Of a DNA stretch of 64,000 nucleotides, positions 26,989-36,320 are shown piece by piece. Origin of the DNA: an uncultured Verrucomicrobiae bacterium (lineage in GTDB: Bacteria > Verrucomicrobiota > Verrucomicrobiia > Chthoniobacterales > Chthoniobacteraceae); the NCBI GenBank assembly GCA_963769025.1, contig CAVYKI010000004.1, positions 76,984 to 140,983 on the forward strand, given 5' to 3'. The position numbers and the translations under genes were made by a program. The notes below the pieces were generated by a model. That model saw only the letters and a program-made list of their open reading frames with translations. It did not search any database and was not told where the DNA came from. The number at the start of each line of letters is the position of its first letter. Within the stretch, counting starts at the first letter, position 1.

Positions 26989-27156
26989 TTAAAACGGAGT
27001 GCGCCGGCTGGAAATCTGCGCGGCTCCGGGCGACTGAATCTGGACTCCGACGCTGCCGTGAAGAATATCGTCGTCGTGCGATCCTTGCCGGGCCGCGCAG
27101 CCGGACAGAATGAACGCAAAGCCGATTGCCACGAGGGGAAGCAACCGTTGGCTCAC
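26989..27156 (-). CDS. Small putative lipoprotein
   Basis: GTG start, hydrophobic stretch, lipobox LSGC. Confidence 0.55.
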   Translation of the reverse strand: MSQRLLPLVAIGFAFILSGCAARQGSHDDDILHGSVGVQIQSPGAAQISSRRTPF

Positions 27157-27169
27157 AGCCTTTTCGCGA

Positions 27170-27598
27170 CTAGTTCTTTTTTGCGGTCGGCGCGGGTCCA
27201 CCGCTCTTTTTTGCCGCCTCCCAGCGCGCTTTCATTGCAGCTGCCAGCTTTGCCCTCACTTCGGGAGACATCTTGCGTTTCTTTTTCGCTGGAGCTGCTG
27301 CTGCTTTGGGCTTTTCCGGAGCCGCGACCTTCGCCTTCGCGGCGGCTGGCGCTTTGTCGCCGGCCTTGACCTTCGCCCAACGCTTTTTCTGAGCCGCCCT
27401 GATGTTGGCAATGGCCGTGGGTGACAGCTTGCGTCGCGCGGTTTTGGCGGCCTTGGCAGGCTTGGCGGCGGGTTCTGCGACACGGGATGCTGATTGCGGC
27501 TGGCTGCCGAGAATGGCTGCGAGTTCCTTTTCGAGTGCCGCGATCTGTTCGGCGAGCTCGAGACCGCGCTGCCATTGAGAGAGGGTGGGGATATTCAT
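27170..27598 (-). CDS. Basic histone-like putative DNA-binding protein
   Basis: N-terminal coiled coil, K/A/P-rich linkers, two copies of RK(L/M)SP...(K/A)RW helix. Confidence 0.75.
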   Translation of the reverse strand: MNIPTLSQWQRGLELAEQIAALEKELAAILGSQPQSASRVAEPAAKPAKAAKTARRKLSPTAIANIRAAQKKRWAKVKAGDKAPAAAKAKVAAPEKPKAAAAPAKKKRKMSPEVRAKLAAAMKARWEAAKKSGGPAPTAKKN

Positions 27599-27695
27599 GG
27601 GGCTGACAGGTATTGCCTAACTGAAAAATAGCAAGCGGCGTTGCAAATGCCCGTGCATGGCCTTGCTTGGAGTGCGGCTGTGAAAGGAGGTTGAT

Positions 27696-28454
27696 TCACT
27701 GGGCCGTCCAGCCGCCGTCGATGACCACATCGGTCCCTGTGACGAAACCTGCATCTTCCGAGCACAGGTAAAGCGCGAGCTTCGCGATCTCCTCCGGTTT
27801 GCCCCAGCGGCCGAGCGGGATCTTTGCGAGGAATTGTTCCCGCAGCTCCGCGTTTTGCATTAGCGGTACGTTGATTTCCGTGTCGCACACGCCGGGGCTG
27901 ATACCATTGACGGTGATTTTTTCCCCCGCGAGTTCGAGCGCGAGCGCACGGTTGAATCCGAGCAGTGCCGTCTTGCTGGCTGAATAGGCGGTGCGGCCCG
28001 GCAGGGAGATGTGGGACATCATGGAGGTCATGTTGATGATGCGCCCGTAACCTTGCCCGGTCATCATGGGGACGAATGCGCGGCAGAGCAGAAACACGCT
28101 GGTCAGGTTGGTGTTCAGCACGCTGTTCCACTCGGCGAGTGTGAAGTCGGTGACGGGTTTGCGGATGTTGATCCCGGCGTTGTTAATGAGGATGTGCAAG
28201 TGGGCGCCGATCCGGGAGGCGAATGCATCGTGCACACCGGCGACCTGAGTTTCGTCGGTGACGTCGGCGACGAAGACCTCGGCGTTGCCGCCGTTGCCCC
28301 GAATCTCCGCGGCGACATCATTCAGCTTCGGTCCGTCGCGGGAGACGAGTGCGACGGTCGCGCCAGCCTCGGCGAGGGCGAGCGCCATCGCCTTGCCAAG
28401 GCCCTTGCTGGCTCCGGTGATCAGTGCGGTTTTGCCGTGAAGTGGTCGAGTCAT
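27696..28454 (-). CDS. SDR-family oxidoreductase
   Basis: TGASKGLG, NNAG, YSASK, DGG. Confidence 0.93.
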   Translation of the reverse strand: MTRPLHGKTALITGASKGLGKAMALALAEAGATVALVSRDGPKLNDVAAEIRGNGGNAEVFVADVTDETQVAGVHDAFASRIGAHLHILINNAGINIRKPVTDFTLAEWNSVLNTNLTSVFLLCRAFVPMMTGQGYGRIINMTSMMSHISLPGRTAYSASKTALLGFNRALALELAGEKITVNGISPGVCDTEINVPLMQNAELREQFLAKIPLGRWGKPEEIAKLALYLCSEDAGFVTGTDVVIDGGWTAQ

Positions 28455-28638
28455 GGCCGGACAATACGGAGTGAACCTGCCGACGTGACACAAAAAACAC
28501 GCTGGCCAGCCCGGATGCTGGCGGGCAACGTGCGGCAGTGAACGCGCCGTCGAGACAGTCCCCGCCAAGCCGGACGGTACCGGACCGCTGTGCTCCGGCC
28601 GCTTTCTGCGAGATACTCGACATCGAAAGGAGACAGCG

Positions 28639-29226
28639 GTGTCCGAACTCCTAGTCAGGGATCGCTGGTATGCGCTGATCGTCGCCGGGCCGAGCGGCTC
28701 GGGAAAGAGCGTGGTGGCCGAGCATGTCGGGCGGGAGCTCAGCCTGCCGGTGATTGATGCCGACGATTACCATAGCCGGGAAGCGGTGGAGCTCATGAAG
28801 CGCGGGACGCCGCTTGCGGACGAATATCGCGAGAGTTGGGCGGAACGCATCATCGGCGGGATGATCGCCTGGCGTCGGCGCGGTGAGAGCGTGGTCATTG
28901 CATGCTCGTGCATCCGCCGCCGCACGAGGGATCGTTTTCGCACCTATGTGAACGAGGCGCGAATCGTGGGCGGTCAGGTGGTCATCGCATGGCTGGATGT
29001 ATCGCCGGAGGTGCTCCGGACGCGCCTTCTGCGCCGGGAGGAGGAGCAGACGCACTTCTTCCCTGCGTCGCTGCTTGGCTCTCAGCTCAATGCCGCGCAG
29101 CCCCCGGATCCGCAGAGCGAACCCGGGGTGATACGGATCGCAGTCGGACCGGAGGCGCCCGACGCTGTCGCTCGAAAGGTTTGGGAATCCGTACCGGCAC
29201 TTCATCCATTCGTTGCCCGCGCCTGA
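28639..29226 (+). CDS. Gluconokinase (GntK/IdnK-like)
   Basis: GPSGSGKS, DADDYH, MKRGTPLAD, IACS, HFFPASLLGSQ. Confidence 0.85.
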   Translation: MSELLVRDRWYALIVAGPSGSGKSVVAEHVGRELSLPVIDADDYHSREAVELMKRGTPLADEYRESWAERIIGGMIAWRRRGESVVIACSCIRRRTRDRFRTYVNEARIVGGQVVIAWLDVSPEVLRTRLLRREEEQTHFFPASLLGSQLNAAQPPDPQSEPGVIRIAVGPEAPDAVARKVWESVPALHPFVARA

Positions 29227-29272
29227 CACCGCGGTGGTCAAACGCACGAGGAGGGGCGGATGCCATCAGGAA

Positions 29273-29294
29273 CCGTCTGGATGAGTCCAGACGG
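29273..29294. terminator. Perfect hairpin between convergent genes
   Basis: CCGTCTGGA-TGAG-TCCAGACGG; no U-tract. Confidence 0.35.
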
Positions 29295-29368
29295 ATGCCT
29301 TCACCCACACATGGGGACTGCGACTTCCGGCGCGTCAGAATGTACGGCTGCGGCCGAAGGACTCCGCG

Positions 29369-30043
29369 CTAGCTTGCCAGGCGGTAGTGTCCCGGGCCGA
29401 CCTTCTTGATATCCTTGAAGTTCTTGCCGGTGGTCGAAAACCACACAAACAGGTTGCGGGGGTTCATGCCAAATTGCTTCGCGAGATCACCGACGCGGGC
29501 ACCGTCCTTGCCAGCGGCCTTCAGCGCGTCCTGAATGCCCGCTGACAGCTCACCGCGCTTGGATCCGACGGACTTCAGCGCCTTGGGAGCCGCCTTCGCA
29601 GGCGTCGGGGCCGCAGGCGCCGCGGCGGGCACGGGTCCGACGAGGCGGTAGCGGCCCTTTCCAGCCTTGCGGATCGCGGGAATGGTCTTCCGCGCAAATT
29701 GAAACCAAGAATGAAGGGCTTCGGGCTTTGCGCCAAGTTCCGCCGCAAGGTCCCGCACACGCATGCCGGCTTTTCCGGCCGCGCCCAGCGCTGCGAAGAT
29801 GCGTCCTTTCAATTCACCCCGCGGGGCGCGTCCCGGTGTCACTGCCGGGGCCGCTTTGCCCGCGACCGGCGCGGCTTTTTTCGCGACCGGAGTCGCAGCG
29901 GTCACTCCGCTGTCGGAAAATAGTGCGTTCTTGATGCGTTCCAGGCGGGCCAGCACTTGATCGAGCTTGCCTTGCAAGGCGGCGCGCTCTTTTTCAATGC
30001 TCATTGCTTCTTTGAACAGGTCGATTCGGGATGGTGAGGACAT
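29369..30043 (-). CDS. Putative DNA-binding protein: coiled coil plus tandem winged-helix domains
   Basis: Two homologous domains RGELKGRIFAAL..VRDLAAELG..SWF..GKGRYRL and RGELSAGIQDAL..VGDLAKQFG..VWF..GPGHYRL. Confidence 0.75.
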   Translation of the reverse strand: MSSPSRIDLFKEAMSIEKERAALQGKLDQVLARLERIKNALFSDSGVTAATPVAKKAAPVAGKAAPAVTPGRAPRGELKGRIFAALGAAGKAGMRVRDLAAELGAKPEALHSWFQFARKTIPAIRKAGKGRYRLVGPVPAAAPAAPTPAKAAPKALKSVGSKRGELSAGIQDALKAAGKDGARVGDLAKQFGMNPRNLFVWFSTTGKNFKDIKKVGPGHYRLAS

Positions 30044-30236
30044 AGGGCTGGATGCTTCATCCATACTCCCGATATTCTCAAGTATTATCTTGCTAGCGTC
30101 AGATTGCGGCACGTCTGGTGGCTTGGTGTGCGCGGACGGCGGAGCGGGCTTCCTGCCCGCGGGACAAGTGCCTTCCCGGATGTGGATCACGATTCCTTTG
30201 CAAAAACCTCCGCCAGCGCTATCGTCCCCAGCCTCT

Positions 30237-30809
30237 ATGGAAAAACGAAACTTCAGCAGCCTGATTCTTGCCCTCGTTGCAATCGGCGTGCTCGCTGGGT
30301 GCGCAACAAAACCGCCGCCGCCGCCGCCCACGCCAACCCCTGCCAAACCCGCTCCGCCCTATACCTGGAATGACACCGGCGCCACCGGCGACCCGAGGAT
30401 CGTGGTGAACGTCTCGAGGCAGCGAGCTTACTTCTTCCGCGGGAACGAATGTGTTGGCGACACGCGGTGCAGCACGGGCAAGAAGGGTTTTGCAACGAAG
30501 CTCGGTGCTTATGCCGTGACGCAAAAGAACAAGGACCATGTCTCAAATCTATACGGCAACTTTGTCAACGAAGCGGGAGAGGTCATCCAGCGCGACGTGG
30601 ACATGAGCAAGATGCAGGTTCCGGAAGGCTGTTCGTTCCAAGGTGCGAAGATGCCATACTTCATGCGCTTCACAGGCGGATACGGGCTGCATGCCGGAAA
30701 AGTGCCGAACTACCCTGCGTCGCACGGTTGCGTGCGGCTCCCGCGGGTGATGGCGGAGCGCTTCTTCGTGAATAGCAGGATCGGCACGCCAGTCCTGGTT
30801 GAAGAATAG
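30237..30809 (+). CDS. L,D-transpeptidase (YkuD family) lipoprotein
   Basis: Lipobox LAGC; GLHAG..PASHGCVRL. Confidence 0.92.
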   Translation: MEKRNFSSLILALVAIGVLAGCATKPPPPPPTPTPAKPAPPYTWNDTGATGDPRIVVNVSRQRAYFFRGNECVGDTRCSTGKKGFATKLGAYAVTQKNKDHVSNLYGNFVNEAGEVIQRDVDMSKMQVPEGCSFQGAKMPYFMRFTGGYGLHAGKVPNYPASHGCVRLPRVMAERFFVNSRIGTPVLVEE

Positions 30810-30811
30810 GC

Positions 30812-31208
30812 GGCGCTGGGGGCGGAGTGCCACGTCCTCGCGCCGTGCCGGCTTGGACGGACGCCGCGAGCGGGTGAAGGCCGACGGGCGCGATGCGGCG
30901 GGGCTGTGCCAGCGGCTGTCGCGCTTTGTGAACGGCAACCGCAGGGAACTGGCTGTCATCAGCGTGGAACGTGGCGCGAATCCGCAGCCTGACCGGCACT
31001 CGGTCCGCACGAAGTGCGACGCCATATTCGAGCGGAGCGAGAAAGACTGGCCGCAGGCCAGCCCGGAGGGTGACGCCGGGAGGCGTCATCAAATTGGACC
31101 GCGCCCCGTTCCGCTTCACCCGCCGCATCCGTCATACGGTGCTGTCCGCCCTGCGGCCAGGCTCAACTCAGTTCACCAAACTTCCATCTTCACCACTTTC
31201 ATAGGGGG
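30812..31208 (+). mobile_element. IS110-family remnant (transposase fragment plus probable right-end non-coding region)
   Basis: Translates ALGAECHVLAP then, after a frame change, RRERVKADGRDAAGLCQRLSRFVNGNRRELAVI (KxDxxDA of the DEDD domain); followed by hairpin-rich non-coding DNA. Confidence 0.6.
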
Positions 31209-31220
31209 TGGGCGTTGCGG

Positions 31221-31748
31221 TCATTCGGGATTAAGTGCTGCGATAGCTGCCTCATGCAGCCACGCGCGCTGATAATGCTCGGCGTAGTAAGCGGAAATAT
31301 TGTCGTCGCCGCGATTGAGGTTGCGTCGCTGCGCCTCCTCGATGTCGCAGGTGATGCCCTGCATCTCGACGCCGTTGCCGATAGCGCGCATGGCGTCGAT
31401 GAGTGCCTTGGTGGGCTCGAAGTCAGAGCCGATAAGCTCGGTGACGATGTGCCGTCGCTCGTCGATGGCCTGGCTCGCGATGATCGGTCCGATAACGTCG
31501 AGAAACTCTGCGAAAGGGCCGGGAAAGTCGAAATACTCGCCACGGCTGAGACTGAGAAACACCTCGGCGGCGTCCACGAGAACATAGCCGGACGAAAAGC
31601 GTTGCTTGCGGACGGTGGTCTTGCCGGCGGCGGGGCCGCCCATGAGGATGACAATGCGCGGCTGAGTGCCGTTCGAGAGTGATGAGTCGTCGAAGTAACG
31701 GTCAATCTCGGCACTGATGTCGAACTGGAAGACGCGTTCTTCTGGCAT
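31221..31748 (-). CDS. Zeta-toxin-like P-loop kinase (gene cassette 2)
   Basis: ILMGGPAAGKTT, VLVDAAE, CDIEEAQRRNLNRG; starts just after the R' box GTTAGCC. Confidence 0.7.
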   Translation of the reverse strand: MPEERVFQFDISAEIDRYFDDSSLSNGTQPRIVILMGGPAAGKTTVRKQRFSSGYVLVDAAEVFLSLSRGEYFDFPGPFAEFLDVIGPIIASQAIDERRHIVTELIGSDFEPTKALIDAMRAIGNGVEMQGITCDIEEAQRRNLNRGDDNISAYYAEHYQRAWLHEAAIAALNPE

Positions 31749-31771
31749 GGCTTTCAGGATGCGCGAGCAAC

Positions 31772-31813
31772 GGCTAACGCACCCAAGCTCAGCGACCACG
31801 GAGCGGTTCGCTG
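31772..31813 (-). other. Integron attC site, 3' half (L' and R')
   Basis: Minus strand CAGCGAACCGCTCCGTGGTCGCTGAGCTTGGGTGC-GTTAGCC. Confidence 0.85.
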
Positions 31814-31882
31814 AGTCGCCGTTAATCGTGGGGTGAACATTGCTGCGGAGCGTATCGCTTCGCAGTGCGAAGATCAAATCCC

Positions 31883-33057
31883 ATGAAGACGAAACTCCAA
31901 CCCAAACCACCAACCAAGAACCCGAAGTATTCCGTCTATGCCGCCCTCGATTTGCACAGCGCCCGCAGCGTGCTCGGCGGCATGGACCATGACGGGAACG
32001 AACTCGGCCAGTCCCGGTTCCCGACCGATGCCGAACATCTCACGCAGGCCGTGCGCTCCCTGGGCGGCACCGGCGTGTGCCTGACCATGGAGGCCAGCTC
32101 GCTGACCCGCTGGGCCGCGGGGCTGGTGCGGCCACTCGTCGAGCGGCTCGTCATCTGCGAGCCGCGGCGCAACCGGCTCATCGCCGAGGACCCGAACAAG
32201 AATGACGGGCAGGACGTCACCAACCTGTGCTTGCTTCTGCGCATCAACCGGCTCAAGGAAGTCTGGATGGGCGACGACCGCCAGCGCCAGATCCACCGCG
32301 AACTGGTCTATGAACTCCTGAACTGGCGCGACGCCCAGCGCGAACTCAAGGCGCTGCATCAAAGCCCGCTACCGGCAGTGGGGCGTGCTGCGCGTGGAGG
32401 GCACCGGCGTCTTTTCGCGCACGCAACGCGAGCGTTATCTCAGCCAGCTCCCCGGCGAGGAGGAAAGGAGGATGCTGCTGCGCGTCTATGCCCAGCACGA
32501 CCACGCCATCGACCAATGGAAGAACACCCTGCGCGAAGTGCTGCCGCGTGGGCCGCCAGTTCTGGGAGGTGGGCGAGTTCAAAAAGATCCCCGGCATCGG
32601 CATCATCGGCGCCCACGTCTTCAGCGCCATCATCGAGGACCCGGCCCGCTTTGCCACCCGGCAGAAGCTCATGAAGTATGCGCGGCTGGCGATCACCGGT
32701 CGCAGCAGCGACGGCAAGCCGCTGGGCTACGAACGGCTCGAACGGCGCGGCCACCGCGAACTCAAGACGCTGAGCTATCACGCCTGGCGCACCGCCTGCC
32801 GCAGCACCACGCGCGACAACGCCGTGCAGCGCTTCTACCGCGCCAGCCTCGAGCGCACCCACGACGTGCGCCACGCCCGGCTCAACACCCAGCGCAAGAT
32901 CCTCGCCGCCATGTGGCGCATGTGGCTCAAACGCGAGGCATGGAAGCCCGAACTCTTTTTCACAGCCACCGACCCGGACGCGACCGCGACCGGGCGAAGC
33001 CAGCCTGAGAACGCCGGCCCGCGTAAAGAGGCACCGCCTCACGCGGCTCAGGGTTGA
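31883..33057 (+). CDS. IS110-family transposase/recombinase (two frameshifts, near 32350 and 32545)
   Basis: DEDD domain ALDLH..MEASS..KNDGQD; Tnp20 domain IPGIG..F..LAITGRSSDGK..GHRELK. Confidence 0.9.
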
Positions 33058-33340
33058 CGACCCCGGCGTCCGCAGCGCAGCGGACTGGGAAAACGCCGGC
33101 CGCACACACCCGGCCATGCGCTTGGGCGGTCTCGATTCAAGGGGGGAACTGCCCCCGCGGGCCCAGCCCCGATTCGCATGAATGGTGCGGCCGGCGACAT
33201 TTCCGCCAGTTCCCCAAGGATGACCCTGGGCGGCCAAGTCAGCAAGTCAGCAAGCTAATAAGCTGACGAGTTAGCAAGTGAGCACAAAGGCCAGCTTCCA
33301 AAGCCTGCATGGAACCCCGACACGTCATCGCAGTCCGCCG
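33058..33340 (+). ncRNA. Candidate bridge/seekRNA in IS right end
   Basis: 12-bp perfect stem 33094-33105/33185-33196; second domain closed by GATGAC/GTCATC; short matches to the donor end and to the attC target. Confidence 0.6.
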
Positions 33341-33493
33341 TCCCGCCGCAGACGCCCGTCCCGCCAGCACCCCAAAGGCACTCCGCCCATCACATCGCCC
33401 GGACTCCGGACGACAAACCCCGATAGTCATCAAAGAAAAATGACGCCACTAACGGGGCGCGTCCCCCCATGCTTTTATGACTTGATTAAAAGC

Positions 33494-33512
33494 CTGCAGC
33501 GCATGGTTCGGC
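33494..33512 (-). other. Integron attC site, 5' half (R'' and L'')
   Basis: Minus strand GCCGAAC-CATGC-GCTGCAG, just downstream of the cassette 1 stop. Confidence 0.85.
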
Positions 33513-33546
33513 GTTGCGGTCACTTGGGATTTTTGCGTCGCGTCGC

Positions 33547-33873
33547 TCACGGAACAATGCGCAATCTCGCGATTTTGCCGTCTCGAAGTGTGAAGGTGTA
33601 GTGAAGCGGAATCGGACTTCCGGGAAAATTGCCGCTGACGGTGGCGGTAACGACCGTATCGTTACCCGCATGTGACAGGTCGGTTACTTTGGCAATTGGT
33701 TTGGCTTCCGCAGTGGCGCGTTCAATCCATTCTTTGATGGCGGTGCCGCGATGATCCTTTGATTCATCGGTGACGTGGGCATCGGCGGTGAACAGCGAGA
33801 GGAAATCTGCAAACTCTCGTGTGTTGGTGGCGTGGAAGAAGGCAGCGATAACCGGTGGGAGTAATACGTTCAT
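33547..33873 (-). CDS. SnoaL-like/NTF2-family protein (gene cassette 1)
   Basis: LPPVIAAFF..FTADAHVTDE..VSGNFPGSPIPLHYTFTLRDGKIARL; bounded by GTTAGGC and attC. Confidence 0.88.
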   Translation of the reverse strand: MNVLLPPVIAAFFHATNTREFADFLSLFTADAHVTDESKDHRGTAIKEWIERATAEAKPIAKVTDLSHAGNDTVVTATVSGNFPGSPIPLHYTFTLRDGKIARLRIVP

Positions 33874-33938
33874 GGCTTTCTTGTGGATGTTAGTGTCGAG
33901 CGAATTCTTGTTCGTTCTGTGGTGGAAGCGCGAGCATC

Positions 33939-33975
33939 GCCTAACATTTTGATTGAGCCGCAGGGGTGCGGCATA
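33939..33975 (-). other. attI-like integron recombination site
   Basis: Minus strand ..GCGGCTCAATCAAAAT-GTTAGGC: GTTRRRY core after an A-rich tract with no attC-type hairpin partner. Confidence 0.55.
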
Positions 33976-34313
33976 TCCACGCGATCTAAATGCGGCATTT
34001 GCGGAGTGGAGCGGGGGCGGTTTACTCGGGCAAGCGGAAGTTTTTCCGGCTGCTGGAGGCCGTCGGCGCGGGGTGGAAGGGTCGTCGCGCTCGGCTCGTT
34101 CGGTGTGCTTGTTTCGATCGTGCAGGTTAATCCGGCCCGCACGCCCGACACCGTCCGCGAAACTGACGCGGGCTCATTGGTCGGGTTTCCGGGAGCGTGT
34201 TTGGATTGGGGTTTGCGTGATTTTCGGAACGTCTGATTCCACCGGCTCCCGGCCGGCGCATGGGCGCGCTTTTTTTACTCGCACCGGGAGGGCGAAGCGT
34301 TTCGAGTCGGAGC

Positions 34314-36320
<2,007 letters not shown>

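Follow-up and report, generated by a model that had tools for sequence, protein, structure and literature searches.

Here we describe an IS110/IS1111-type insertion element from an uncultured Verrucomicrobiae bacterium and the guide RNA that it probably encodes. The element spans positions 31812-33496 of a 64,000-nucleotide stretch of contig CAVYKI010000004.1 (hereafter, the window), is inserted within an integron attC-like site and shows the dinucleotide TG at both its left and right junctions. Comparison with related elements argues that plus-strand positions 33087-33334, inside the 3′ non-coding region of the element (33058-33494, 437 nt), are probably the gene of a bridge RNA, or long seekRNA. 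Four observations carry this proposal: an RNA structure maintained by compensatory changes, guide segments that co-vary with the target flanks and with the element end, the existence of empty target sites, and the fold of the recombinase. From these we infer transcription and processing of the RNA, its binding by the protein, and catalysis.

According to the mechanism that we propose, RNA and transposase would be transcribed together, from a promoter that exists only once the circle is joined (TTGATT, 17 nt, TTAATC). Loaded onto the recombinase, the RNA would next bring circle junction and attC arm into contact. Domain 1 (33094-33196) would act as the target-binding loop, with its 3′ side (GATTCGC) pairing with the bottom strand left of the core, domain 2 (~33209-33329) would act as the donor-binding loop, and recombination would occur at TG. 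Judged by these comparisons, the system most likely works like the known attC-directed seekRNAs and would be a distant, undescribed branch of a known kind. The original prediction, made from the letters of the window alone, had already read this region as a bridge RNA or seekRNA guide. All the features that it listed are present where it placed them, and its central idea is supported by related elements, in which the two-domain structure is conserved and guides co-vary with the flanks and the right end.

The features of the element and of its insertion site are as follows.

31772..31811 (+): left half of the interrupted attC-like site, with a GGCTAAC box at 31772-78 and the left target GGTTCGC at 31805-11
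31812..31813 (+): core dinucleotide TG, left copy; TG is also found at the right junction
31814..31882 (+): left end of the element, AGTCGCCG TTAATC ..., with the -10-like TTAATC at 31822-27
31883..33057 (+): IS110/IS1111-type transposase gene, in three frames, with +1 frameshifts near 32357 and 32545; PF02371
33087..33334 (+): predicted bridge or long-seek RNA, full-length covariance-model match
33094..33105 (+): 5′ strand of P1, CGCCGGCCGCAC, outer stem of the putative target-binding domain; pairs with 33185-33196 (12/12 bp)
33114..33122 (+): putative right-target guide (RTG), CCATGCGCT, from own-versus-swapped flanks and window shuffles
33124..33169 (+): H1, variable inner hairpin of domain 1, whose three basal pairs are compensatory (3/3)
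33171..33184 (+): left-target guide position, GATTCGC (6/7 to the left flank, position conserved), then the conserved ATGAATG
33185..33196 (+): 3′ strand of P1, GTGCGGCCGGCG; pairs with 33094-33105
33209..33213 (+): 5′ strand of P3, GTTCC, closing domain 2; pairs with GGAAC at 33311-33315
33219..33224 (+): 5′ strand of P4, GATGAC; pairs with GTCATC at 33324-29
33228..33297 (+): H2, inner hairpin of domain 2, enlarged by ~45 nt; contains GGCGGCCAAG
33300..33309 (+): putative left-donor guide (LDG), AAAGCCTG, a copy of right end and core, with identity extending through CA
33311..33315 (+): 3′ strand of P3, GGAAC
33324..33329 (+): 3′ strand of P4, GTCATC
33482..33494 (+): right end of the element, TTGATT (-35-like and part of a short subterminal repeat) followed by AAAAGCC
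33495..33496 (+): core TG, right copy
33497..33512 (+): right half of the attC-like site, with the right target CAGCGCATGG and a GTTCGGC box

Structure of the predicted RNA

A 38-sequence protein alignment was used to retrieve 20 related loci (L001 and so on) from genome contigs. The 3′ non-coding regions of 19 of them were aligned with that of the window; L018, with unrelated downstream sequence, was left out. The aligned regions contain two conserved domains with variable hairpins between, and domain 2 mirrors domain 1 motif by motif (yTCCCsAyC ... TGG(hairpin)CC ... TG.ATG). A covariance model with a hand-set structure (R1) was then built from L005, L007, L009 and L012 only, the window being excluded. 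R1 gave 20 full-length matches and a partial one (L001), with none in L018, and in the 64 kb of the window it recognised a single stretch, 33087-33334 (33.4 bits, E 6.2e-7, model positions 1-179). In the R1 alignment 88.9% of the cells were paired, as compared with 75.3% in shuffles (0/500 as high), and changes on both sides were present in 18/23 pairs when 8.6 were expected; sliding the 3′ partner by 1-3 columns left 26-53% of the cells paired. These pairing counts are supportive and are not probabilities, because the structural alignments were fitted to our own structure, with a bias towards it, and because the loci are related to one another, for which reason the permutation counts given throughout are not true probabilities either.

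Individual helices behave in the same manner. The perfect 12-bp stem claimed for domain 1, P1, is 100% complementary in the window, and its homologous helix shows compensatory changes in 6/6 pairs. P3, the fourth helix of R1, is compensatory in 4/6 pairs with 82% of its cells paired; its register in the window was read by eye, the model having placed it one base off. P4, which takes the place of P3 as helix 4 in a second model, is compensatory in 3/5 pairs, and the two models perform equally (89.3% paired and 17/22 pairs compensatory with P4). When the duplex energy of each locus's own strands was compared with that of swapped strands, permutations as good were found 0/20000 times for P1, 0/20000 for P3 and 1/20000 for P4. 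Thus the GATGAC/GTCATC pairing with which the original prediction had enclosed domain 2 is a real stem, but that picture needs correcting, since this stem crosses a second covarying helix. P3 and P4 represent either a pseudoknot or alternative folds. A CATG/CATG pairing across domain 2 was also considered and was ruled out, the variable bases varying independently.

The inner hairpins are less constant. H1 differs among loci in length and sequence. In the window, the H2 segment 33236-33289 is ~45 nt longer than that of any relative and consists of imperfect repeats of the CAAGTCAG / CAAGTGAG type. No Pfam match was obtained with the five mechanical open reading frames (ORFs) that overlap the RNA region.

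Might the matches be chance similarities, accompanied by generic hairpins, in DNA of 63-65% G+C? The statistics of the window alone are modest. In 2000 dinucleotide shuffles of 33058-33450, the match level of the 9-mer CCATGCGCT was reached in 34/2000 and that of the 8-mer AAAGCCTG in 38/2000. The other two matches were not significant: the left-flank match has an exact run of 5 nt only, and in the left-end sense a different segment, the 7-mer CGGCGAC (33192-98), gives the best exact match, at a level reached in 318/2000 shuffles. The window by itself is only suggestive, and the case therefore rests on the homologous elements, which back three of the four matches and both stems, the fourth match, GGCGGCCAAG, being excepted. 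A model built without the window finds the RNA uniquely in 64 kb, its helices covary, and its guides co-vary with the flanks to the point of following a base inserted in L001 (see below). The chance explanation is already contradicted by these comparative data, and we regard it as extremely improbable.

Target and donor guide segments

Domain 1 carries two target-matching segments of opposite strand senses with a hairpin between them. The first, CCATGCGCT (33114-33122), was proposed to be identical to the bottom strand of the right flank and is indeed the reverse complement of AGCGCATGG; the match is 9/9 in the window and in L003. In L001 the corresponding segment, CAATGGCGCTG, equals its own flank at 11/11 positions, extra base included. 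When own flanks were compared with swapped ones, 34/20000 permutations were as good (10 distinct pairs from 14 loci; L017, with a truncated right end, was dropped). On this sequence evidence CCATGCGCT is the right-target guide, covarying with the flank. The original prediction had also cautioned that CATGCG could simply pair with CGCATG. This is true for the free RNA, and relatives have a predicted invariant pairing of the same type. The pairing, which stems from repeats inside the attC arm, speaks neither for nor against a guide.

The second segment, GATTCGC (33171-33177), would be the left-target guide, with weaker support than the other two guides. Its claimed 6/7 match to GGTTCGC (31805-31811) stands and so does its position, but significant covariation with the flank was not found (see below). 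Among the loci, 4-6 of 7 positions on the 3′ side of domain 1 agree with the left flank's top strand, the variable fifth base agrees with the flank in 10/15 loci, and the TTCTC of L001 matches its own flank. Reprogrammability, which the original prediction had put forward, may be a property of this system; the suggestion draws only on the natural co-variation between guides and targets.

In domain 2, AAAGCCTG (33300-07) had been noticed as a copy of the right end plus TG (33489-96), and the identity is in fact 10 nt long (AAAGCCTGCA). The hexamer that precedes the core falls into three classes among relatives, AAAGCC, AGAGCC and AGAACC. The hexamer in the RNA is identical to the true right end in 14/15 loci with an intact right end (L020 agrees at 5/6 positions), and 71/20000 permutations were as good. 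We take AAAGCCTG, whose sequence classes track the real right end, to be the left-donor guide. When the loop segments are compared across homologues, as the original prediction had suggested, covariation is thus found for the right-target and left-donor guides, and not for the left-target and left-end segments.

An internal copy of the right end flanked by palindromes might also play its part as DNA, providing alternative ends or transposase-binding sites rather than an RNA. The 10-nt identity of 33300-33309 to the integrated right junction would suit this idea, as would the several kinds of circle that are reported for ISPpu9. Yet the identity is limited to the length of the guide, and the TTGATT repeat adjacent to the true end is absent at the internal site. 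Moreover, pairing in the helices is maintained by way of G.U intermediates (26 cells) and compensatory changes, the pattern of a folded single strand, and target segments that have opposite senses and are split by a hairpin correspond to a bridge-RNA layout and not to a captured site. A role at the DNA level is, in our opinion, very unlikely.

A second alternative concerns the function of domain 2 within an RNA. Domain 1 could be the only guide, equivalent to the short seekRNA of ISEc11, and domain 2 a co-transcribed structured tail for processing or stability, with recognition of the ends left to protein contacts and to the target sequence that flanks them. Siddiquee 2024 (PMC11187229) report that ISEc11 can transpose with its short seekRNA alone, and leave open what the long form does. 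The unusual crossing helix pair of domain 2 is in keeping with this arrangement, and so is the failure of our scans to find a left-end guide. However, the domain-2 segment identical to right end and core follows the right end through its three classes (14/15; 71/20000), and domain 2 parallels domain 1 motif by motif. A purely structural domain 2 would leave the right-end co-variation unexplained, and we consider it quite unlikely that domain 1 guides alone.

If domain 2 is a donor-binding loop, as we propose, which segment would read the left end? The original prediction assigned this task to GGCGGCCAAG (33229-38). Its 7/10 match to GGCGACTCAG is correct, but the guide role did not survive: the segment lies in the stem of the inner hairpin of relatives (GGAC...GTCC), does not covary with the left end, and has the same bases in L002 and L003 despite a different left end. 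Likewise, covariation with the left-end variants AGCC, AATC and GCCG was absent for GACTC at the 5′ junction of domain 1, for CCCCA upstream of domain 2 and for AUGAC, considered in two registers. The only candidate for a guide to the left end (right-donor guide) is AUGAC, P4's 5′ strand, because its position is paralogous to that of the right-target guide in domain 1. It is complementary to the GTCAT that most relatives have at their left end, with mismatches in the L004 group and in the window.

The two left guides (33300-33309 and 33171-33181) both extend past the core into the neighbour acquired after insertion. AAAGCCTG-CA is identical to the integrated right junction and, with one base bulged, TTCGC-(A)-TGA is identical to the integrated left one. 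This overrun may be related to the 'handshake' idea put forward for IS621; the strand sense differs.

The attC-like target, the circle junction and the transposase

The insertion point and the orientation of the element in attC sites are fixed, with the same junction in the window and in 15 loci. The left junction reads ..GGTTSGC TG AGTCGYC.TTAAT.. and is kept in 15 related loci, and the right junction ..CTTGATTAAGARCC TG CAKCG...GGTTAG (alternatively rendered ..AAGARCC TG CAKCG..GGTTAG) is kept across loci. Uninterrupted sites of the form GTTSGC-TG(or TT)-CATCG..GGTTAG were found in 6 loci, L013 having five of them ~500 bp apart, the spacing of a cassette array. These empty sites carry a single TG or TT and fold as attC-type hairpins in which the CCTAAC and GTTAGG boxes pair. 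One arm of the folded site has two single-base bulges, and the insertion point lies at the second bulge. From the junctions and the folding of empty sites it follows that the target is an attC arm with, as long as it is empty, a single copy of the core dinucleotide.

Core sequences other than TG also occur. TT is found at the right junction of L014, L015 and L016, GG at the left junction of L010, and the empty sites L006:1470 and L004:4878 are among the loci with a different core, some empty sites having TT. Left junctions were recovered for L014, where it is TG, but not for L015 and L016. Such variation is the pattern expected if donor and target cores differ, and it may reveal which strand's core each junction inherits. 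Two further loci deserve mention. In L018:2926-4300 the left junction is normal, but only the first two-thirds of the transposase gene are present before unrelated sequence takes over, with no RNA match; this is therefore a truncated copy. L004:1210-1403 holds a second RNA copy, with a right end at ~1569; it shares a cassette array with the main copy and lies upstream of it.

When positions 33482-33496 are joined to 31812-31827, as in the inferred circle junction, TTGATT and TTAATC come to stand 17 nt apart. The arrangement TTGATT, 17-nt spacer, TTAAT(T/C/G) is present in 12/12 loci with both ends, and the two hexamers double as a short subterminal repeat. They are likely to form a junction promoter, and the same arrangement is published for ISEc11 and IS621. 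Inside the integrated element, a scan for sigma-70-like promoters found none. On the minus strand, 33443-33460 within the right end contains a terminator-like hairpin with a T-run that faces transcription from the cassette side, and relatives have a conserved block with an A-run and a hairpin at the same place.

As regards the protein, the C-terminal piece of the transposase matches PF02371 (E 1.4e-12) and the N-terminal piece matches PF01548 weakly. With the unbroken C-terminal piece as query, 920 of 1458 candidate proteins qualified as relatives (E of 0.001 or better), the top one with 89% identity; intact forms are mostly of 365-392 aa. The 20 loci come mostly from soil Verrucomicrobiota-type metagenome-assembled genomes (MAGs), plus one Burkholderiales and one Acidobacteria MAG. 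A search of PDB sequences with the 38-sequence profile gave nothing at E 0.01 or better, IS621 appearing at E 0.015, so that a comparison of folds was needed. An AlphaFold (AF2) model was made of the relative P0001, not of the window copy (pLDDT 79.4, pTM 0.73). Its top Foldseek matches were ISCro4 (9t56) and IS621 (8wt9/8wt6), with E ~1e-12 over ~350 columns, and TM values of 0.57-0.72 at 16-18% identity to these chains. The predicted fold of the transposase thus matches those of the IS621 and ISCro4 bridge recombinases.

A conserved serine region (P0001 265-281) reads Y..L.IT.RSSDGKPLG, and model confidence is low in this stretch (pLDDT <50 at residues 270-289). The G--P----SG and GL-P----S(T)G motifs quoted for IS110 and IS1111 are absent from the family alignment. 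A tblastn search of 72,556 plasmids with P0001 gave IS110-family matches at 22-30% identity only, none of those listed or tallied being under Klebsiella or Pseudomonas.

In the window the interrupted site is flanked by two small minus-strand genes, for a weak Zeta/CPT-like P-loop protein and a SnoaL-like protein. These belong to a run of small minus-strand genes at ~27000-35000 (SDR, hypotheticals, Zeta/CPT-like, SnoaL-like) split by imperfect palindromes, which looks like a cassette array with no integrase nearby: among 18 ORFs scanned from 19.9-44.9 kb of the window, no integron integrase was found. The ORF 29372-30346 has a weak HTH_Tnp_1 match, which suggests another mobile element.

Besides the bias and relatedness of the alignments mentioned above, a number of observations weigh against a bridge RNA at this place. 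With the plain MAFFT alignment of 20 sequences RNAalifold returned 0 pairs, because the helices shift register between subgroups, and for this reason the duplex-energy swaps and the covariance model were used; on 8 closer sequences it returned 29 pairs, 7 of them compensatory. The 26 G.U cells exceed the A.C cells (15) only modestly, and the strand assignment therefore comes mainly from context. The fold energy of 33058-33340 is ordinary (z -1.47, 16/200 shuffles as good), as the chance explanation would have it, and an Rfam scan of 31000-34200 with E up to 10 gave three unrelated matches, to miRNA and RtT families, at chance level (E 2.5-7.7, far below the gathering score).

The guides add further points of this kind. 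Matches between guide and flank are mostly imperfect: best-alignment scores against the 11-nt right flank go from 11 (L001) down to 3 (L020), through 5.5 in L011 and 5 in L019, and most are ~7, roughly one mismatch per 9-nt guide. The left-target guide is short, its fifth base disagrees with the flank in 5/15 loci, and with corrected columns its permutation test was not significant (2928/20000). For the left end, k-mer and pairing scans against the core plus left end revealed no consistent column, and the L004 group's candidate, ACGAC, does not match the left end. When occupied and empty sites were compared, the occupied one was the best guide match in 2/4 arrays only (L004 and L013), was tied in L011 and was worse in L019.

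The protein gives two more reasons for caution. NF033542, 'IS110 family RNA-guided transposase', can be aligned from one end to the other, yet its score of 89.5 bits is below the cut-off of 140. In addition, the window copy of the gene is frameshifted, with two +1 shifts near 32357 and 32545. Both frameshift regions (32345-32372 and 32532-32560) share the local context ..GCTGC.., which could point to a systematic sequencing or assembly error rather than decay. The window copy would at best supply the RNA or be moved by an intact copy elsewhere.

Relation to known systems and significance

Seek RNAs aimed at attC sites are already described for ISKpn4, ISPst6 and ISPa25 (Siddiquee 2024, PMC11187229). 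The element described here resembles these three in the encoding of the RNA downstream of the gene for the transposase, in the position of the top-strand-pairing segment 5′ of the bottom-strand-pairing one, in the use of one end of an attC site as target, and in a circle-junction promoter together with a target duplication limited to the shared core. Its transposase is probably not close to theirs, as judged indirectly from plasmid matches at 22-30% identity, and its hosts are soil Verrucomicrobiota-type MAGs. Within the IS1111-attC group (ISKpn4, ISPst6, ISPa21, ISPa25), transposase identities are given as 46-89% (Siddiquee 2024, PMC11187229).

Is it then an IS1111 element? In IS1111 elements the top-strand match precedes the bottom-strand match (Siddiquee 2024, PMC11187229), and in IS621 the bottom strand is paired by the left guides, the top strand by the right ones (Durrant 2024, PMC11208160); the strand geometry found here is that of IS621, and the guide order is the reversed one of IS1111. 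Subterminal inverted repeats of IS1111 elements are given as 11-13 bp (Siddiquee, PMC11187229) or as 7-17 bp (Durrant, PMC11208160), with a 7-bp left and a 3-bp right extension. With TG assigned to the left end, the extensions read by eye are of 7 nt on the left (TGAGTCG) and 3 nt on the right (GCC or ACC), and the subterminal repeat, TTAATC / GATTAA, is imperfect and only ~6-8 bp long. The transposases of relatives have 365-392 aa compared with the stated 330-350 aa of IS1111, and show RSSDG, in ..L.IT.RSSDGKP.., in place of the GL-P----S(T)G of IS1111. As regards a possible membership of IS1111, location, guide order and the 7- and 3-nt extensions fit, the repeat is at best marginal, and the protein length and the serine motif depart from what is published.

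With IS621 the element has in common two paralogous internal loops for target and donor, a core dinucleotide common to both, and the recombinase fold. It differs from IS621 in that the RNA lies in the right end instead of the left, the guide order within each loop is reversed, and the core is TG instead of CT. The right-target guide ends short of the core, and the left-target guide reaches it only with a 1-nt bulge. The donor loop has crossing helices, a right-donor guide was not found in the scans, and the protein similarity is marginal (E 0.015 with the 38-sequence profile). The likeness to ISEc11 resides in a guide placed in a ~150-250 nt 3′ non-coding region and in natural retargeting among relatives through changes confined to guide segments. 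The target of ISEc11 is a short linear sequence and not a folded attC arm, and its short form, for which an 82-nt RNA suffices, has no donor loop, in contrast to the covarying donor-end match observed here.

No paper on this clade was found in literature searches on attC with bridge RNA or IS110. A bolder interpretation would make it a deep-branching and hitherto undescribed clade of bridge recombinases with its centre in soil Verrucomicrobiota, in which attC targeting was gained independently of the IS1111-attC group and the donor loop is gated by a pseudoknot, with AUGAC held by the 3′ tail of the RNA, GUCAU. This tail copies the left-end GTCAT of most relatives. Because AUGAC would be held by the tail, donor binding would need a conformational switch. 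We think this interpretation unlikely, and a distant branch of the known attC-directed kind is what we favour.

Understanding of such systems would be unchanged by these findings, unless the crossing helices of the donor domain prove functional. What the element offers is a natural example of RNA-guided recombination far from the studied branches, at 16-18% identity to IS621 and ISCro4 and below the curated family cut-off, with at least 920 relatives, mostly in environmental sequence. Because the putative guide segments can be read against many natural attC subtypes, these relatives could become a data set from which natural retargeting and the tolerance of mismatches can be studied. With regard to integrons, the results suggest that soil bacteria have, in their chromosomal cassette arrays, insertion sequences that seek attC; these split attC sites and are predicted to carry outward and junction promoters.

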